8,206 nucleotides of DNA from Naegleria gruberi (lineage: Eukaryota). A program made the translations under genes and the position numbers. The stretch lies in assembly GCA_000004985.1 (NCBI GenBank), contig GG739080.1; one strand, 5' to 3'. This document shows positions 190-8,206 of the stretch, in pieces. Numbering within the stretch: position 1 is the stretch's first letter; each line of letters opens with the position of its first letter. The notes beneath the pieces are model-generated. The model saw only the letters and a program-made list of their open reading frames with translations, had not been told where the DNA came from and searched no databases.

Positions 190-1104
190 ATGCCGATTGT
201 TAAAATATCAGACAATTTCTCTAAATCATTCAAATTTAAAAAAATGGGTCAACGAAACAGTCAAGATTTTGAAAATCATCATACGAATAATTCGGAGGAA
301 ATATTCACAATTCACCATAATAATATGGTGAAAGCAAAACAGAAGAAAAAATTTGTGAAACTCCAACGACAAGAAATATTTTCAGATGATATTTGTTTTG
401 AAATAATTTCAATGATTGATGATTCGTGGTTTATTTTAAATAATTGCGCTTTAATTTCAAAACAATTCTTTAATGTGATCAAGGAACGTTCAAAACTTGT
501 TATTCAATTTAAAAACAAATTTACAAAGAAAAGAATTAAATTATTCAAGAAAAGTCAATTTAGGAATAGTATTGTTAATGTTGAATTTTCTGGATATTTG
601 CTTGGCTCGAGAGAAAGAGTCAAATTCATTAGTGAAATGAAACAATTGACATCACTTGATATTTCTCACAATCTAATTGGTTATGAAGGAGCCAAATATA
701 TAAGTGAAATGAAACAACTAACATCACTTAATATATATTACAATCAAATTAGTGATAAAGGAGCCAAATATATAAGTGAAATGAAACAATTAATATTACT
801 TAATATTGGTAGCAATCGAATTGGTGATGAAGGAGCCAAATACATCAGTGAAATGAAACAATTAACATCACTTAATGTTTCTAACAATGAAATTCGTGAT
901 GAAGGAGCTAAATTCATCAGTGAAATGAAACAATTGACATCACTTAATGTTTATAAGAATCGAATTAGTGTAGAGGGAGCCAAATATATAAGTGAAATGA
1001 AACAATTAATATTACTTAATATTGGTAGCAATCGAATTAGTGATGAAGGAGCCAAATACATCAGTGAAATGAAACAATTAACATCGCTTCACACAACAAA
1101 TTAG
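190..1104 (+). CDS. F-box-like plus leucine-rich repeat (LRR, 24-aa unit) protein. The 3' end is truncated or altered by transposon insertion at about 1090, and the last codons HTTN-stop are read from the transposon terminus.
   Basis: Long ORF. The N-terminal segment IFSDDICFEIISMIDDSWFILNNCALISKQFFNVI fits the F-box pattern of hydrophobic residues. It is followed by 7 near-identical units of the form LTSLNIxxNxIxDEGAKYISEMKQ. LRR homology stops abruptly at 1090, where the transposon TIR begins. A possible alternative start is MGQRNSQ at 244. Confidence 0.7.
   Translation: MPIVKISDNFSKSFKFKKMGQRNSQDFENHHTNNSEEIFTIHHNNMVKAKQKKKFVKLQRQEIFSDDICFEIISMIDDSWFILNNCALISKQFFNVIKERSKLVIQFKNKFTKKRIKLFKKSQFRNSIVNVEFSGYLLGSRERVKFISEMKQLTSLDISHNLIGYEGAKYISEMKQLTSLNIYYNQISDKGAKYISEMKQLILLNIGSNRIGDEGAKYISEMKQLTSLNVSNNEIRDEGAKFISEMKQLTSLNVYKNRISVEGAKYISEMKQLILLNIGSNRISDEGAKYISEMKQLTSLHTTN
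631..1089 (+). repeat. Tandem array of 72-bp repeats, about 6.4 units, encoding the LRR units. Copies are near-identical at the nucleotide level.
   Basis: The motif agtgaaatgaaacaa recurs at 631, 703, 775, 847, 919, 991 and 1063, an exact 72-nt period. Units differ by only a few substitutions. Confidence 0.9.
1088..1090. repeat. Putative 3-bp target site duplication (TTC), left copy.
   Basis: TTC lies immediately outside the left TIR (1091). An identical TTC lies immediately outside the right TIR (7594-7596). TIR similarity ends exactly at these points. Confidence 0.4.
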
Positions 1105-1107
1105 CGG
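1091..1107 (+). repeat. Left terminal inverted repeat (ACACAACAAATTAGCGG).
   Basis: Matches the reverse complement of 7577-7593 at 16 of 17 positions. The terminus begins with a (A)CACAAC motif, loosely similar to CACTA-type ends. Confidence 0.75.
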
Positions 1108-1334
1108 TACGAATTGTGTTTGCGACCCCAGTATCGCATACTTGGGTCCCAATTTGGTATTTTAAAAAATACGCTTGCCACCAAGAGTAAGAACCACAAG
1201 TTATTCGCAGCCAACAAGCCGTTCCAAACACCATCACATCATCACAGAAATAATAATTATTTTCATCAACAAACAATCATTTATTAACTACAAATATTAA
1301 TAATTTTATATATTCTAGTATTATTAATAATCAA

Positions 1335-2354
1335 ATGATATCATTCCCTCCCAGACAGGTTGATCTTTTTGATAGTAATGTAATTGATGTTGATAAAACC
1401 ATATTTAATGAACAATTAATTAGAAGAATTAAAAACATCATCAAAATGGATATCGGAATAGATTGGAGAGGAACACATTTTAGACACAAAAATCACCTAG
1501 TTAAAGAGGAAGTATGTGATAGAACAAATTGGATTGTGTTATGTCCTAATGGACAGGTAGACATTGCTTTTTTTCCAAATGCTATTCCTGAAGAATTATG
1601 CTTGGAAATGGAGACTGTAGTTGCGAATAGTGATGTTGATATTTTAAGTTGTAAAAAGGCAATTATAGATGGATCATGGACAAGATATGGAAATGGAATT
1701 TATCCAGTTAAAACAATTACTACTAACCAAAGTATTCTATTACATGAATTGAATGATAAGTGTGGACCATTTGTTTTGGATAAGTTAAAACATATTAATA
1801 AGAATATGTTTAATAAGTTGGATAATATTAATGAGGATATTAAAAATTATAAAATTTTTGCTAAATACCCAACTTTAGCATTAAATGTATCTCATAATGA
1901 AAATTACAATATAAGTAAGAAACCATATCGCAAACACACTGATGGTAATGATATTGGATTAGGAGTATTAACATATTTCGGAAGTGAAATAATTGAAGGT
2001 GGCAATCTTATTATTCATATTGAGAACTTGAAAGTATTCAACTTTCCAATTCAAAGAAGGGATTTGGTATTTTTAAATTCTAAATTTTATGCTCACCAAG
2101 TTACTAAAGTGACCTCTGGAATAAGGTTTGGTTTAGTATATTTTGCTGGAGAAGCTCATTTCAGAGTTAGAAATAATGATGATTTTTTACCTGCTTTACC
2201 ATTTAATGCTAATGACAAAGAACTACGAGAAGAAAGATCCAAAAAAGGTAGAAAAAGTATGAATGAATACAAAAAAAGATTTTTAAAAAAGTACTTACGA
2301 GAAAAGAAAAAAATTAACAAAAAGAGAGTTAAATGTAAAAATAAATTGAAATAA
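1335..2354 (+). CDS. 2-oxoglutarate/Fe(II)-dependent dioxygenase, TET/JBP-like (putative nucleic-acid base oxygenase), with a lysine-rich C-terminal tail. Cargo gene of the transposon.
   Basis: 339-aa ORF. H201-T-D203 (RKHTDGND), then H254 (FYAHQV) 53 residues later, then R264 (GIRFGLVYF) 10 residues after that. This is the canonical HxD...H...R spacing of the double-stranded beta-helix 2OGFeDO fold. The last about 45 residues are highly basic (KKGRKSMNEYKKRFLKKYLREKKKINKKRVKCKNKLK), which suggests nucleic-acid binding or an NLS. The family assignment to TET/JBP rests on the motif pattern plus the transposon context. Confidence 0.6.
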   Translation: MISFPPRQVDLFDSNVIDVDKTIFNEQLIRRIKNIIKMDIGIDWRGTHFRHKNHLVKEEVCDRTNWIVLCPNGQVDIAFFPNAIPEELCLEMETVVANSDVDILSCKKAIIDGSWTRYGNGIYPVKTITTNQSILLHELNDKCGPFVLDKLKHINKNMFNKLDNINEDIKNYKIFAKYPTLALNVSHNENYNISKKPYRKHTDGNDIGLGVLTYFGSEIIEGGNLIIHIENLKVFNFPIQRRDLVFLNSKFYAHQVTKVTSGIRFGLVYFAGEAHFRVRNNDDFLPALPFNANDKELREERSKKGRKSMNEYKKRFLKKYLREKKKINKKRVKCKNKLK

Positions 2355-3468
2355 ATGTATAATAATTACAACATTGTTGTTGTTTCATACAGTGGTCAGC
2401 ACTGTTATTGGTAACAACACCATCTCCACCAAAGATGATGTTGTTGATGTTTCATACTTACAGATTGATTTCTCTTGTCAAACATTTGATATTATTCGCT
2501 TTCAAGAATCATAATTTCCTTAAAAAATAATATTCAATAATTGATTCGAGTCATTTGAATTCTCACACACTTTCTCCCTCTTCACCAAACTTGATTTCAA
2601 CAACAGTAACATCAGTGACATAATCATAGTTCCATAAACTGGAATACCATTTGTGCAATAGCAGCACGATTGTTAATTGCGTCTAAAAGAATGGTTGTAC
2701 AAATGTCAAATGTTAAATGGCTTAATTAACTAAAATACTTACCCTCTCTTTGGATGATTGAACTGGGTCGTCTCTAATCAGTGGTTTCTTGTTTTGGATA
2801 AGCATCGATAAGAGTTGGAGTATTATCATCAACTTGAGGATTATACAATAATTTCAAATTTAAATTACCTTTCACTTGTTGACCTTCGAATGGCTAGAGA
2901 AATATAAAAACCAAAAATGTCGTTTTACCTGATTCACTTGATGCTGTTGAAGTGCTGTTATTATCTTGTGGAACGATAGTTGTTGGTGTAATTGTGACTT
3001 GCTCTGTTTTAACAACAAGAGTTGTGACAGAAGTTGCTGGGGTCTTTGATAATATTATCTTTAGGATCAGTGGTTGAGTTCCAAAAACAAATACTGTTGT
3101 TGGTGTTGAGTGTAATGTCACTGAATGATGCTTCATGAAGCCATTTTAGGTGGTTCGGATGTTGTTGATATTTTGGCCACAACTTGATGGTGTTTCATGC
3201 TGTTGAGTAGAAGATTTTGATGTTGTAGCAGGTGTATATTTGATCAACAAAAGGAATCAATAATGGAGGGTTCGAAAATATTCTGATTGGCTGTACAATC
3301 AGAGTGTAAACGACTCAACAAAGGCTAAAACAACCACCAAGAACTTTAGAAGTATCTAACACCCATGTGATGGTGAGATACTCCACCTAGTTTTCTTGGC
3401 AAAAATTTTTAACCGCATTTTTTTTCTTTCAAATTTTTATTTCTTTTTACAACAGTTATGTAATACAT

Positions 3469-6400
3469 TCAATCATCAAAGTAGAAGTCTGCACACCCAA
3501 GTAAATCCTGCCAATCATATTGTTCGTCAACATAAGCATTTTGATTATATTGTTTAAAGAAGGAGGTGTCTAATAAAACATCATCTTCATCAGATTGTTC
3601 GTTCCGATTTATAATCGTATCGGAATAAGGAGGATGTGAATTAATGCTGTTTTGATAGGCTACCATTAGATTCAAAGTTTCAGTCATTAATAATTGGTTC
3701 TCAGGATAGTTTCTTTCAATGGAATTATTTGAATCAAATGAATTATTTTGGGTCATGAATGTGGGAGATGGAGCACTGGTAGTAAATGTAAAAGCAAGTT
3801 GTCGAGCCTCTTCATTCGTTAATGATTGATAACTTGATGGACTGTGGGAACCTATATTACAAACGGCAATAGGTGATTCGTATGAACCAGAATCAAATTG
3901 TAAAGGTGGTCTACTAATTTCAATGTTTCTTTCCCAGAAAGATTTAATGACACTACCAACCCTTAGTTCTAATCTTTTGAAGACCACATCTTCAGCAGTG
4001 AATGAAAGATATAAAATTCTAAATTTCTTAAACATAATTTGAGCTATTTGGTACAAATCATTCCAAGATGTTTCATTCGTTTTTTGAATTAGATTACTAT
4101 ATGTAAAATCAAGAAGCGTATCATTTCTAACATGGTCAATCAATGTGGAACTATCTTCAATCACATATTCATGAGGTTTGGATGTCTTTTTGGTCCCTAT
4201 ATTCATCTTTCCTCTACTCACACATCTTTCCATCAACCACCGATCATACTTATGACTGTGTTCAACAGCTTGATTGGAGAAGGGAACCAAGCTTCCAATT
4301 GTTGTCAATAATTCGAATAAATGGTTAACAACAATGTGAATGTAATCACCAACGGTTCCAGCTGATCTTCTTATTTCAGCAATTAAACCTCCCCATTCAC
4401 TAATTAAATTCTTCAGTTGGAAGAATTCATCACTTGATTTTGAATCAAGTTGTTCATTTGTGTAATATATCCATCTTCTAATTGTTCTCCATCCTTCCCA
4501 AATTTTCCAAATCTTTGGATGATCCTTTTTCACAAAGTCCAAAATTGAATCAATATGCCCAAATATTTTAGAACAATGACTCCCTGTGAACATAAATGAA
4601 TATTCTGAAATATTGAGTGCCTGCTCTTCTCTTTCCTTAACTGAGAAGGAAAATGAACCAAATCCATGAATCTTTTTAAGATTTCCCAATATTTGTGATT
4701 CGGATTTTGTGGATATTAGTGTCATCTTCATAATATATTCAGTGATTCTCTCATCCAAGTGAAGGATGCAAAAATAAATATTCTTAATTCCAAACTTATG
4801 ACCAATATCTCGATGTGAACAAACATCGCCATGTTCTAATGACATCACTGAATTTTCCCTTTCACAATCACAAAAAGCACAAAATTGACAATCATCTCTT
4901 AATATTGAAACGTAAGACAGTGATTTTAAGTCACTGACCCAATAGAATTCACAAGGAATTGTTACAGAATTTTTGATACCACTTTCGTTCAACTTTGGGA
5001 AACCAAGACTTGCATCATTTTTCTCATATTCAATACATAATCCTTGATTTGCAATTTCTTGCAATTCCTTCTCAAAGTCTTTCATATGATCCATAACCTC
5101 CGATTCCTCGCCAACAAACATGCAAATAGGAATTACAGATTTAGGATCCTGAGTTGCAAATGTTAACAAATTCAAAACTTGTAAAGTAACAACCACAGTT
5201 CTCAAGTTTCCAAATTCTCTACCGTCCATTGAAATCTTCCATTTCAAGTCTTCAGGTAAACAAACACCTTCCTTAATTGATTCAGTATGATGTACAACAT
5301 CATTCACAGGGAGGTTATGTTCTTTTCGAACACTAACTTGATGAAGGTGAGCTTTCGATATTGCCGTCATTAATGGAAGTAGGTTTGCTTTGAAACCATT
5401 TTTAACCTGATTTACATTAAAGTATTCCTGTACAATCTTGTTATACTTTTTGGTCTCTTCAGTTAAAGAAGCCTTCATATTGCCCTCTGATAACAAAACA
5501 ATTTCTTTGAAAGAGTAATCTGACAACCCCACCTCGTCTTTTGTTTTCAATTGCTTTTCTAAAGATGGGGTTTTTTTAGACAGATTCATTCGTTGTAACT
5601 CATTATAAGTCTTCTCATCAGCCACTGGATGTCTCTTACATGCCAAAAGAGCATTTAGTATACTCATTGCATGTGTCACATTTTTCCTAAAATAGGAAAG
5701 AAATATATGTGACAATTCAATGTTACATAAATTGGCTATTCCAGCAAATATTTCCATAAAATCCTCACATTTAGTTTTGGATTGTTCGAAACTATTATCT
5801 AAATCCGATCTCTTAACGCTATTATGAATTACTAAAGGTGTACGTTCACTATCATCTGAAACTAAGTTAATTTTTGCTAAATTAACTTTAGTATATTTCT
5901 TTTCATCAATTTTTCTAAAGCCCCCCAATTTTTCATTGATTACCTTAATAACTTGTTGTCTTCTTTCTTTTTTCCTTATTGTTTGATCATTTGGTTTGAA
6001 TTGTTTCGTTTTTTTTCGTTTCTTTTTTACCTCCTTTTCTTGAAGAATATTTCTTTCTGGTATCTTCAAATTCAGTGCCTTCTTCAAGTTTTCCTTATCA
6101 ATAACACTCACAGAGGTACTCTTTGATGTCGTTGTTCTTTTTCTCTTTTGCTTATTAGATGAATCATTATTTTGAGATTCGGTTGGTTGAATATTTTGGT
6201 CATTTAAATCAAGAGAATGTTGATCAGTTGTTTGGGATTCAGATGGTGGAATTTGGGTTGTTTGTTCAGATTGTTCATTTGTTTGAGACATAACTGGTCC
6301 ACAAGAAGAAATATGTTGAATATTATTTGAACTCATGTTTATTTCTACAAGTCTAAACAAAAGTTTCAAAATATTATCCTTGCGTTCAGGTTGTCTAAAC

Positions 6401-6612
6401 AACATCTCTACAGCCCATTGGAAATCAACATACAAACATTTCCGAGAGCATTCAATAAATCTTAAAGATCTTTCCAATTTATAGTTTGGGAATAACTTTG
6501 TGAAATTTCCTTTACAAATTTCGTTGAATTTAAAGAATTCCACATTATCTCTACAGATACAAGAAATTTCCTTCCCAATAATCTCTGCCAAGATCGATTT
6601 ATGGGAACTCAT
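3469..6612 (-). CDS. DDE-type (RNase H-fold) transposase-like protein with a Cys/His-rich insert, CACTA/Plavaka/KDZ-like. It has N-terminal CxC-containing and low-complexity regions, NLS-like basic tracts and an acidic C-terminus.
   Basis: 1047-aa uninterrupted ORF inside the TIR-bounded element. Candidate catalytic residues are D in WKISMDGREF, D in YWVSDLKSL and E in ILHLDERITEY. A metal-chelating cluster CQFCAFCDC...H..C.H...H lies between the second D and the E. Basic tracts KQKRKRTTTSK and KKKRKKTKQFK are present, with a Gln/Ser-rich region upstream and an acidic tail (SDEDDVLLD...FYFDD). Confidence 0.6.
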   Translation of the reverse strand: MSSHKSILAEIIGKEISCICRDNVEFFKFNEICKGNFTKLFPNYKLERSLRFIECSRKCLYVDFQWAVEMLFRQPERKDNILKLLFRLVEINMSSNNIQHISSCGPVMSQTNEQSEQTTQIPPSESQTTDQHSLDLNDQNIQPTESQNNDSSNKQKRKRTTTSKSTSVSVIDKENLKKALNLKIPERNILQEKEVKKKRKKTKQFKPNDQTIRKKERRQQVIKVINEKLGGFRKIDEKKYTKVNLAKINLVSDDSERTPLVIHNSVKRSDLDNSFEQSKTKCEDFMEIFAGIANLCNIELSHIFLSYFRKNVTHAMSILNALLACKRHPVADEKTYNELQRMNLSKKTPSLEKQLKTKDEVGLSDYSFKEIVLLSEGNMKASLTEETKKYNKIVQEYFNVNQVKNGFKANLLPLMTAISKAHLHQVSVRKEHNLPVNDVVHHTESIKEGVCLPEDLKWKISMDGREFGNLRTVVVTLQVLNLLTFATQDPKSVIPICMFVGEESEVMDHMKDFEKELQEIANQGLCIEYEKNDASLGFPKLNESGIKNSVTIPCEFYWVSDLKSLSYVSILRDDCQFCAFCDCERENSVMSLEHGDVCSHRDIGHKFGIKNIYFCILHLDERITEYIMKMTLISTKSESQILGNLKKIHGFGSFSFSVKEREEQALNISEYSFMFTGSHCSKIFGHIDSILDFVKKDHPKIWKIWEGWRTIRRWIYYTNEQLDSKSSDEFFQLKNLISEWGGLIAEIRRSAGTVGDYIHIVVNHLFELLTTIGSLVPFSNQAVEHSHKYDRWLMERCVSRGKMNIGTKKTSKPHEYVIEDSSTLIDHVRNDTLLDFTYSNLIQKTNETSWNDLYQIAQIMFKKFRILYLSFTAEDVVFKRLELRVGSVIKSFWERNIEISRPPLQFDSGSYESPIAVCNIGSHSPSSYQSLTNEEARQLAFTFTTSAPSPTFMTQNNSFDSNNSIERNYPENQLLMTETLNLMVAYQNSINSHPPYSDTIINRNEQSDEDDVLLDTSFFKQYNQNAYVDEQYDWQDLLGCADFYFDD

Positions 6613-6745
6613 GTATTGAGTTTTTTTTTTAAATTTTGAAACGTAACGGTAATTAATTTAATATAAAATAATCAGTGAGTTATTGACATGAAATATTATT
6701 AAAGAGATTATATAAAATTTAAAAAGAAATAATTTATTGATATTA

Positions 6746-7384
6746 TTAAATCAATTCCCAACAATTATTTAGATAATTAAAATGTTCTTTGACAATCTCG
6801 TACTTTGCAAAAACTAGGTTGGTAACTGGATTACAAAAGAATTCCAAATAAACAAATCTAACTCTGTAAACATCACATCTAGGTTCATACTGATACATAT
6901 TTCGGGTGTTATTGTATACTCTTTGGTTAGTGTACACATTCCAAGTAACTCCATGATATGCTTTCTTATTACCCAAACTAGGAAGATTATCGAATCCTAT
7001 GAAACTAAAAGAAGGACAATTCACAGTTATTATTTGGCCATTGAAATGCATAAATTGTTTTCTAGGATCGTTCACAACATGATTTTCTACTCTACTGAAG
7101 TAGGAAACAAAGTATTCAACTGTCAACCCACCAATGAATATCTTATCTTGGTATCTCTTGTGAATGGAAGGATTAAGACAAAAACCAAGTAGAATAGAAG
7201 CATTCTCACAAAACATTTCCAAACAACAAGCTTGTTTCATACGATACACTGGAGTCTTCATTACTGGCTCCTCTAATGGAACAAACTCTGCTGTAAACTT
7301 GGTGTTCTTGTTCTTTGATGCTTCATAAATAAACCACTTGGCTTCTGTTTTGGCATTAATTACTTTACGGTCTGTATTTTGCAA
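6746..7384 (-). CDS. Hypothetical protein (212 aa), third gene inside the transposon, upstream of and co-oriented with the transposase.
   Basis: Clean ORF of 639 nt between the right subterminal region and the transposase gene. Several Cys/His residues are present but no motif I can assign. An overlapping antisense ORF (6923-7192) is shorter and considered spurious. Confidence 0.4.
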   Translation of the reverse strand: MQNTDRKVINAKTEAKWFIYEASKNKNTKFTAEFVPLEEPVMKTPVYRMKQACCLEMFCENASILLGFCLNPSIHKRYQDKIFIGGLTVEYFVSYFSRVENHVVNDPRKQFMHFNGQIITVNCPSFSFIGFDNLPSLGNKKAYHGVTWNVYTNQRVYNNTRNMYQYEPRCDVYRVRFVYLEFFCNPVTNLVFAKYEIVKEHFNYLNNCWELI

Positions 7385-7576
7385 GTTAGAGGATAAATAA
7401 ATAATAGTAACTTACTAGGTTTGTTATTATTGTTGTTTGTTGAACGTTTAGTCATTGTGTATTTGTTTTTGATTGTTGTGTATTATCCTACCAAGTCTAC
7501 CTGCGTGGGATGAGTTAGCTTCATAGTGTATTTTCATTTTTTTTTGCGTCTAAAACACAAAACGTGCCACTAGCCT

Positions 7577-7593
7577 CCGTTAATTTGTTGTGT
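7577..7593 (-). repeat. Right terminal inverted repeat (reverse complement ACACAACAAATTAACGG).
   Basis: 16/17 match to the left TIR. It is immediately followed by TTC and then by resumption of LRR-unit homology (gtttctcacaatcgaattagtgatgaagg). Confidence 0.75.
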
Positions 7594-7596
7594 TTC
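7594..7596. repeat. Putative 3-bp target site duplication (TTC), right copy.
   Basis: Identical to 1088-1090, directly abutting the right TIR. Confidence 0.4.
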
Positions 7597-7597
7597 T

Positions 7598-8091
7598 CAC
7601 AATCGAATTAGTGATGAAGGGGCCAAATATATAAATGAAATGAAACAACTAACATCACTTAATATTGGTTACAATGAAATTACTGTTGAAGGAGCTAAAT
7701 TCATCAGTGAAATGAAACAATTGACATCACTTTGTATTTATAACAATGAAATTAGTGATAAAGGAGCCAAATATTTAAGTGAAATGAAACAATTAACATC
7801 ACTTAATGTTTCTAACAATGAAACTAGTGATGAAGGAGCCAAACACATCAGTGAAATGAAACAATTAACATCGCTTTATATTTATGACAATCAAATTGGT
7901 GATAAAGGAGCTAAATATATAAGTGAAATGAAACAACTAACATCACTTAATATTGGTTACAATGAAATTAGTGATGAAGGGGCCAAATACATAAGTGAAA
8001 TGAAACAACTGACATTACTTTATATTTATAACAATGAAATTAGTGATAAAGGAGCCAAATATTTAAGTGAAATGAAACAATTAACATCACT
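7598..8091 (+). repeat. Second tandem array of the 72-bp LRR-coding repeat, about 6.9 units.
   Basis: The repeat-unit landmark agtgaaatgaaacaa (aatgaaatgaaacaa in the first unit) recurs at 7634, 7706, 7778, 7850, 7922, 7994 and 8066, a 72-nt period. It is near-identical to the units at 631-1089. Confidence 0.9.
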
Positions 8092-8206
8092 AAGAAAATA
8101 AGCTGATTGTACAGTAACACATCAGCAAACTTTTAACCATATCACGATGAGCGCCTCAAAGAATCATCGGGCCACATCAGTATGGTTCAGTATGGCTTGG
8201 TGTTTA

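Follow-up and report, generated by a model that had tools for sequence, protein, structure and literature searches.

The 8,206-bp stretch of Naegleria gruberi DNA analyzed here (the window; AT-rich, with a G+C content of about 30%) raises the question of how a gene for a TET/JBP-family 2-oxoglutarate (2OG)/Fe(II) dioxygenase came to lie next to a transposase gene within a broken host gene, and of what it might do there. Five relevant open reading frames (ORFs) were counted in the window: two leucine-rich repeat (LRR) pieces and ORFs of 339 aa (ORF339, the dioxygenase), 1047 aa (ORF1047, the transposase) and 212 aa (ORF212). The TET gene is very likely cargo of a mobile RAG1/CACTA-like element. 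The full account, in which an autonomous, recently mobile transposon bounded by terminal inverted repeats (TIRs) and encoding a RAG1/Transib/CACTA-type transposase and ORF212 has captured an NgTet1-like gene that counters silencing, is also considered probable, while the anti-silencing function taken on its own is put forward as a plausible but tentative proposal.

Boundaries and recent movement of the element

The features on which the argument depends are as follows (positions in the window).

1092..7592, no strand: whole transposon, 6,501 bp, in the order TIR, TET gene, spacer, transposase gene (reverse), ORF212 gene (reverse), TIR
1092..1107, + strand: left TIR, CACAACAAATTAGCGG, complementary to 7577-7592 at 15/16 positions
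7577..7592, - strand: right TIR, reverse complement CACAACAAATTAACGG, a 15/16 match to the left TIR
1335..2354, + strand: TET/JBP-family 2OG/Fe(II) dioxygenase gene, 339 aa, an open ORF with NgTet1 homology (NCBI XP_002668409.1 / NAEGRDRAFT_76676)
2355..3468, no strand: probably non-coding spacer separating the TET gene from the transposase gene, whose 3' ends face each other across it
3469..6612, - strand: transposase gene, 1047 aa, a probable RAG1/Transib/CACTA-like DDE enzyme (D463, (E503), D561, C578xxC581, C615xxH618, H759x4H764, E784)
190..1091, + strand: left flank, an LRR gene of the host (LRR_6-type) broken by the element, here its 5' part (Pfam LRR_6, E=2e-30)
7593..8101, + strand: right flank, in which the LRR array carries on along the same strand
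190-1104 and 7640-8101, + strand: the two LRR ORFs of the ORF list

The ends of the unit are set to the base by two further copies, which bore out the TIR-bounded element of the original prediction. Homology with an 11.4-kb ENA contig (L008, positions 196-6707) and with a Logan contig (L006), both from run ERR1078381, begins and ends at exactly the bases given above, and the flanks are unrelated. L008 carries the entire unit at 99.4% identity with other flanks on both sides, and L006 shows a third right flank. Identity within the element is 99.4-99.9% among the window, L008 and L006, with three distinct right flanks and two distinct left flanks, none of which matches any other; near-identical copies in different surroundings, at least three in number, indicate that the element moved recently. 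The termini read CACAAC...GTTGTG. Among 150-nt segments of the window paired at random, about 0.05% of the pairs contain an inverted match as good as these TIRs, a score computed first for a 17-nt, 16/17 version of the pair. A TIR of 17-18 bp with a possible TTC duplication was also considered, and was ruled out when the extra copies fixed the true ends at 1092 and 7592.

The surroundings of the insertion bear on whether a host TET gene might simply lie beside a transposon whose left TIR is spurious. The inverted ends are indeed short (16 bp), and no target-site duplication (TSD) confirms a single insertion. However, the left TIR falls exactly at the break in the 72-nt LRR tandem array, which stops at 1089 and restarts, with its strand unchanged, at 7599, right past the right TIR. 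L008 keeps the TET and transposase genes within the same TIRs between its other flanks, and related elements keep the terminal CAC[A/T]ACA motif, so that chance adjacency appears very improbable. The TET gene, placed between the 3' end of the transposase gene and one TIR, begins 243 bp inside the left TIR, and the proposal that it is transposon cargo, enclosed by TIRs alongside a DDE transposase, thus held up.

Two points weigh against a straightforward history of transposition. L008 and L006 are short-read assemblies from a single run, and therefore left and right flanks may stem from different loci and those of L008 may be chimeric; two of the related elements described below (L005 and L007) were taken from genome assemblies. 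Secondly, no direct repeat of 2-8 bp flanks any of the five delimited elements of the family, the junctions inspected being 1085-1095/7588-7600 in the window, 196/6707 in L008, 8104/13014 in L007, 9177/17238 in L005 and 159/6064 in L004. The LRR period across the insertion in the window is 2 nt short, not duplicated. A missing TSD is atypical for RAG1/CACTA-like transposases, and the known lineages of the CACTA/Mirage/Chapaev/Transib (CMCT) clade make duplications of 2-5 bp.

The spacer has a G+C content of about 0.35, above the rest, and differs between copies by 11 substitutions plus indels (~1%). It contains a Thr/Ser-rich ORF of 80 aa (2894-3136, - strand) that is conserved nowhere beyond the N. 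gruberi copies and tolerates indels, and which is therefore probably non-coding. An Rfam scan of the window gave no match, and the NCBI protein set for this scaffold includes neither the transposase nor ORF212. The suggestion of a likely glomeromycete-like host was wrong, since residues 38-339 of ORF339 are exactly XP_002668409.1 and N. gruberi is a heterolobosean amoeba.

The dioxygenase and its likely substrate

Direct indexing of ORF339 places H201-T-D203-G-N-D206 (HTDGND) ahead of H254, which lies 51 residues past D203, and of R264, 10 residues past H254, and finds 23 K/R among the last 50 residues; the HxD(~50)H(~10)R arrangement, the HTDGND context and the basic C-terminal tail described earlier are thus all present. 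The NCBI model XP_002668409.1 is N-terminally shortened and begins at Met38, with residues 26-37 conserved in homologs. When ORF339 was compared by phmmer with all PDB sequences, the only match was the Naegleria Tet-like dioxygenase NgTet1 (5cg8/4lt5, E=3.4e-12 and 7e-12), and a three-sequence family profile, made of ORF339 and two homologs, matched NgTet1 at E=2.3e-19. No AlkB, PhyH or prolyl hydroxylase, the other 2OG/Fe(II) families that had been considered, was found among the PDB matches. The two homologs, 36-40% identical to ORF339, come from Willaertia magna (KAL9651215.1) and from a Logan contig. A further word-indexed search for homologs, using the TET alignment as query, added no sequence to these, and a TET profile scan of metagenome contigs yielded no relatives.

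Residues H201, D203, D206, H254, R264, A182, V268 and F270 are invariant in the three family members. The first, second, fourth and fifth of these, whose conservation was in question, are also kept in all three copies of the element, and they align with NgTet1 H229, D231, H279 and R289, respectively (NgTet1 native numbering, counted along the phmmer alignment). H201, D203 and H254 thus fall on the iron-binding residues of NgTet1, and Arg289, the counterpart of R264, holds the 2OG C5-carboxylate (PMC7854593). By its sequence, then, ORF339 is a member of the TET/JBP family, as originally proposed, and may be inferred to be enzymatically active as a 5-methylcytosine (5mC) oxidase.

With respect to substrate, the 5mC-pocket residues of NgTet1 include A212, V293, F295, H297 and N147, of which F295 is the stacking Phe and H297 reads cytosine N3; Asp234 recognises the N4 amino group of cytosine and makes the enzyme prefer 5mC to T (PMC4678852). 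D206, A182, V268 and F270 of ORF339 align with D234, A212, V293 and F295, whereas H297 aligns with G272; the N147 region aligns poorly with ORF339. The glycine in place of H297 could be taken to mean that the enzyme is active but acts on thymine (yielding 5-hydroxymethyluracil, in the manner of JBP) or on RNA, rather than on 5mC in DNA. This is rather improbable, given that the cytosine-preferring aspartate is retained, that its change to asparagine in NgTet1 (D234N) favours thymine (PMC4678852), and that A182, V268 and F270 also fit a 5mC pocket.

Besides the loss of the H297 equivalent, several observations weigh against reading ORF339 as a typical active TET enzyme. NgTet1 R224, which is positioned at the C1-carboxylate and is one of two arginines described as strictly conserved (PMC7854593), is matched at best by K196, in a gapless local alignment, and by N192/S in HMMER alignments. 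The Pfam check that had been suggested failed to support the assignment: Tet_JBP (PF12851) did not match ORF339 at E<=1, the only match being 2OG-FeII_Oxy_3 at 15.5 bits, and the W. magna ortholog scored 13.3 bits on Tet_JBP, below the cut-off of 34.9. The AlphaFold2 model of ORF339, built on a three-sequence alignment, reached a predicted local distance difference test (pLDDT) score of 35; because this model is unusable, the double-stranded beta-helix fold is taken from the NgTet1 homology.

XP_002668409.1 is presumably among the eight Tet-like proteins of Naegleria that appear in the lists of Hashimoto et al. (2014) and of NEB. If it is, then the TET nature of the protein is not itself new.

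The transposase, its partner gene and related elements

The large DDE transposase with a Cys cluster that had been noted beside the TET gene is ORF1047, the cluster being CQFCAFCDC at residues 575-583. An exhaustive search by profile brought up 206 relatives. Among the 21 and the 54 of these that were aligned, residues D463, E503, D561, C578, C581, C615, H618, R622, Y757, H759, H764, E784 and H787 are nearly invariant (D463, D561, C578, C581 and H618 were scored among the 54 relatives, and H759, H764 and E784 among the 21 closest), giving the residue order D ... D-x16-CxxC ... HxxxxH-x19-E. This order, with its C(2)C plus H(3-4)H, is the signature by which the CMCT clade and RAG1 are defined (PMC12730594).

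Profile comparison points in the same direction. The 54-sequence profile matched amphioxus RAG1L (6b40) in the PDB at E=7e-10 and vertebrate RAG1 at about 1e-9; this match coincides exactly with the H(4)H...E segment, and a further, weak stretch of similarity lies over D...CxxC. Three of the 54 relatives match Pfam RAG1 (best E=1.9e-7), and one matches Transposase_21 weakly. As a guard against profile drift, an hhalign comparison was limited to the four closest sequences; it aligned them with the RAG1L fragment over 119 columns (probability 76%, E=2e-5) and placed H759, H764 and E784 on the zinc histidines and catalytic Glu of RAG1L. The CAC...GTG termini agree with this assignment.

Some results nevertheless count against it. 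ORF1047 and its close homologs match no Pfam family (ORF1047 at E<=1) and no PDB entry on their own, and profiles of the four closest and of the 21 closest transposases, run with hmmsearch against the PDB, gave no match; the RAG1 signal thus needs the broad 54-sequence profile or hhalign, since the 21 closest alone give none. On balance ORF1047 is probably a RAG1/Transib/CACTA-like transposase of the CMCT clade. The AlphaFold2 model of ORF1047 (four-sequence alignment) had a pLDDT of 37, and a scan of metagenome contigs with the transposase profile found no relatives.

The original prediction had likened the locus to the KDZ (Kyakuja/Dileera/Zisupton) transposons that carry TET genes in basidiomycetes. 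A partnership of the same kind was found, but the transposase appears to be RAG1/Transib/CACTA-like instead of KDZ. What the KDZ comparison has in its favor is the combination of a cysteine cluster with a TET gene, as in KDZ elements (Iyer 2014, as reported in PMC12730594), together with a Ulp1 protease domain in two distant relatives of ORF1047. There is, on the other side, no KDZ/CxC Pfam match in ORF1047 (E<=1) or in 53 relatives (E<=0.01), the KDZ/CxC models being assumed to be in the Pfam copy used, whereas RAG1 (3) and Transposase_21 (1) were matched; the PDB matches are RAG1L and RAG1, the H(4)H is a CMCT signature (PMC12730594), and no 8-bp TSD is present. A KDZ origin is therefore hardly credible. 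The element stays within a known kind of partnership even so, because fungal TET-carrying EnSpm, Plavaka and ESTA elements exist (PMC12730594).

As a separate observation, some distant relatives of ORF1047 (P0015, P0016, P0053) have a C-terminal Ulp1 (Peptidase_C48) protease or a fungal Zn2Cys6 domain fused to them. A Ulp1 protease domain has been described for Zisupton.

The transposase is accompanied in all relatives, from N. lovaniensis, W. magna and metagenomic/Logan contigs, by a homolog of ORF212. In the window this partner gene comprises the following.

7384-6746, - strand: the 212-aa ORF of the ORF list
6746..7371, - strand: exon 2 of the conserved partner gene, with homologs that directly precede the transposase homolog in L003, L004, L005, L007 and L011
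7372..7415, - strand: predicted 44-nt intron (GTAAGT...ACAG), read from the sequence; splicing would join the ATG-initiated exon in frame
7416..7455, - strand: predicted exon 1 (MTKRSTNNNNNKP...); the N-rich segment at the N-terminus can be aligned to the homolog from N. lovaniensis

The start of ORF212 thus probably lies further upstream, in an exon beginning with ATG (7455-7416) that is spliced over the intron, giving a product of 221 aa. Neither ORF212 nor its close homologs matched a Pfam family or a PDB entry, and the family profile likewise found nothing in the PDB.

Short TIRs starting CAC[A/T]ACA delimit complete related elements, in which the ORF212 and transposase pair is held between CAC[A/T]ACAA ends and the termini are CACTACAA or CACAACAA.

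L007 8104-13014 (N. lovaniensis), 4.9 kb: TIR start CACAACAATTTA, no cargo
L005 9177-17238 (W. magna, JBEGDK010000099.1), 8.1 kb: TIR start CACTACAATTTA, cargo a TET-like gene
L004 159-6064 (ENA metagenome, ERZ27254845), 5.9 kb: TIR start CACTACAAACCA, cargo a histone H3-like gene
L005 16029-17077, + strand: the W. magna TET/JBP-like cargo, 336 aa, with a 38-nt intron and HLDSCD...H...R, 161 bp from the distal TIR
L004 1528-1914, + strand: core-histone gene with an H3-like fold and a divergent N-terminal tail (Pfam Histone, 7.8e-39), between the ORF212 homolog and the transposase

The W. magna cargo is a different gene, divergent from ORF339 and opposite in orientation to the N. gruberi cargo; it matches NgTet1 at E=5.7e-5 and CcTet at E=6e-3, and reaches 94.8% in hhalign against the ORF339 family. 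True ORF339 orthologs occur on a W. magna contig (L001) and a Logan contig (L002, SRR28981358), in each of which CACTACAA precedes the ATG, by 118 bp (at 9883) and 172 bp (at 29), respectively, and is oriented as it is in the window. The chance of each such occurrence is roughly 0.03, which suggests that these orthologs, too, may lie at the ends of elements; their contigs are short or truncated and show no transposase, L001 ending 0.9 kb past the gene.

More distant transposase paralogs were found in N. gruberi (P0022, P0156, P0034), in N. lovaniensis (P0050) and in a Pharyngomonas kirbyi transcriptome (P0026), the last of which is thus transcribed. L011, which stems from the run that also gave L008, combines an ORF212-like gene and a transposase at 905-3847 with an adjoining F-box/LRR gene, and has no TET gene. 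None of the ORFs that converge on distant relatives of the transposase in L009, L010 and L011 is TET-like, and one of them is an F-box/LRR gene; nor is the gene on the left side of the N. lovaniensis element TET-like.

Proposed function of the cargo and comparison with known systems

Differences among the three N. gruberi copies, pooled over the window, L008 and L006, were used to evaluate which parts of the element are under constraint. In ORF1047, 7/10 variable sites are synonymous and three non-synonymous, with a ratio of non-synonymous to synonymous rates (dN/dS) of ~0.10 (P=8e-4), showing that the transposase is under purifying selection; L006 ORF1047 has 2-3 amino-acid differences by tblastn and codon analysis. 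The ORF212 coding sequence has one change compared with 6.9 expected (P=0.008). The TET ORF is intact in all copies and has four changes where the neutral rate predicts 10.6 (P=0.02), but three of these are non-synonymous (P124L, H153Y, V185I) and one synonymous, for a dN/dS of ~0.7 with n=4, and therefore constraint on the TET gene is weakly supported at this time scale. As a further observation, substitutions between copies are strongly transition-biased (21 transitions, 5 transversions), with a conceivable link to 5mC deamination, their direction being unpolarised without an outgroup.

It is proposed that the transposase, perhaps with ORF212 as a DNA-binding or regulatory partner, would cut at the CAC ends, and that ORF339 would oxidise 5mC in DNA to 5-hydroxymethylcytosine (5hmC), 5-formylcytosine and 5-carboxylcytosine using Fe(II) and 2OG, its basic tail being a possible nuclear localisation signal or DNA-binding tail. 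The TET protein would then erase or convert a silencing mark on the element, perhaps also on other copies in trans, and the transposase would stay expressed. In N. gruberi, 5mC amounts to 0.28%, occurs in all contexts and is enriched on repeats and young transposable elements (TEs), and its intermediate levels have been taken to suggest turnover (PMC12344493). With 5mC lying preferentially on repeats and young transposons, a TET cargo would be positioned to remove or convert the mark on its own element.

The most serious competing view is that the TET gene is a neutral passenger or serves the host, having been captured by chance without anti-silencing benefit, and that its spread explains part of the expansion of NgTet paralogs. 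The three non-synonymous changes, next to one synonymous, among the TET copies fit this view, as does the N. lovaniensis relative, which is complete without any cargo, and 5hmC has gone undetected in N. gruberi (PMC12344493), a finding that also weighs against the proposed activity. Against a passenger stand the intact ORF in every copy, with fewer changes than the neutral expectation, and the catalytic residues, which are invariant across genera. In addition, a second, different TET-like gene occupies the same position in the W. magna element, and the ORF339 orthologs of two other organisms also follow the terminus-like motif; such recurrence of TET-like cargo at element ends argues for selection. 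The neutral or host-serving explanation thus appears unlikely, though less so than the alternatives considered above.

In the searchable literature (Iyer et al. 2009/2013/2014 falling outside its scope), TET-carrying transposons have been described in fungi alone, with none reported for Naegleria or another protist. The N. gruberi element thus extends the same TET-transposon partnership to another eukaryotic supergroup, and the TET type is new to it, as is the transposase lineage, which had not been described. A broader interpretation would have an undescribed heterolobosean RAG1/CACTA-like lineage, with CAC[A/T]ACAA ends, an obligatory 212-aa partner and TSD-less insertion, capturing chromatin and epigenetic genes repeatedly, namely two different TET/JBP paralogs and a histone H3 variant, such that the eight Naegleria Tet-like enzymes are largely transposon-borne anti-silencing cargo; this is doubtful as a whole.

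If that broader interpretation is true, transposons of different eukaryotic supergroups, those of basidiomycetes, rusts and truffles among them, have converged. A second, independent occurrence in Discoba, with another TET type and another transposase lineage, would show that transposons recurrently steal a 5mC oxidase as a counter-defence, wherever repeats are silenced by 5mC. The element also offers a hypothesis for the puzzle that N. gruberi has several Tet-like enzymes, yet sparse 5mC on young TEs and no detectable 5hmC (PMC12344493). One of these enzymes is a widely used structural and biotechnological model, and N. gruberi methylomes, axenic cultures and recombinant NgTet protocols exist, which make the idea directly testable. 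ORF1047 deserves attention in its own right, being a RAG1-like enzyme that is tied to one partner protein and apparently makes no TSD.

Of known systems, NgTet1 (PDB 4LT5/5CG8/5CG9) is closest to the dioxygenase, coming from the same organism and family and being its sole significant solved relative. Both are small single-domain enzymes of ~320-340 aa that share the HxD...H triad, R289/R264, D234/D206, F295/F270, A212/A182 and V293/V268. They are distant paralogs, with a weak alignable core (residues 62-273, ~49 bits), and ORF339 differs from NgTet1 in its long Lys/Arg-rich C-terminal tail, in G272 for H297 and, at best, K196 for R224.

Eleven lineages of fungal DNA transposons carry TET genes, including the CMCT members EnSpm, Plavaka and ESTA, with three fungal lineages as hosts (Kojima 2025, PMC12730594); the basidiomycete carriers are KDZ elements according to Iyer 2014, as relayed there. 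Like the element described here, the fungal TET-carrying transposons have TIRs, a DDE transposase, an intact TET/JBP gene as an extra ORF and CA...TG termini (PMC12730594). The CMCT carriers likewise have C(2)C plus H(3-4)H, and ESTA has also been linked to RAG1 by profile comparison (PMC12730594). Their presumed role, countering 5mC-based silencing, is likewise a proposal (PMC12730594). The host here is instead a heterolobosean (Discoba), the TET protein is of NgTet1 type and not of the fungal PU/AG/PE types, and the ORF1047 family has no Pfam model, always occurs with ORF212 and shows no TSD, where the fungal elements have 2-3 bp or TA. The copy number of the N. gruberi element also appears low, unlike that of the fungal elements.

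For the transposase, the D...D-x16-CxxC...HxxxxH-x19-E series of ORF1047 matches the order and spacing of the catalytic and zinc residues of RAG1. In RAG1 numbering these are D708-x18-C727xxC730 ... H937x4H942-x19-E962. The similarity to RAG1, ProtoRAG RAG1L and Transib is at the profile level only, and unlike those systems the element has no 5-bp TSD and no RAG2-like partner (ORF212 being unrelated by sequence), while ORF1047 has an extra conserved CxxH (C615/H618) beyond the RAG1/Transib pattern. It also differs from CACTA/EnSpm, in that ORF1047 does not match Transposase_21, no 3-bp TSD is seen and subterminal repeat arrays were not found. The likenesses to both are nonetheless several: the recombination signal sequence heptamer and Transib TIRs begin with CAC, as do the termini here; related copies have CACTA-like ends (CACTACAA); and two proteins are encoded by the element, in a manner comparable to TnpA/TnpD of CACTA/EnSpm.

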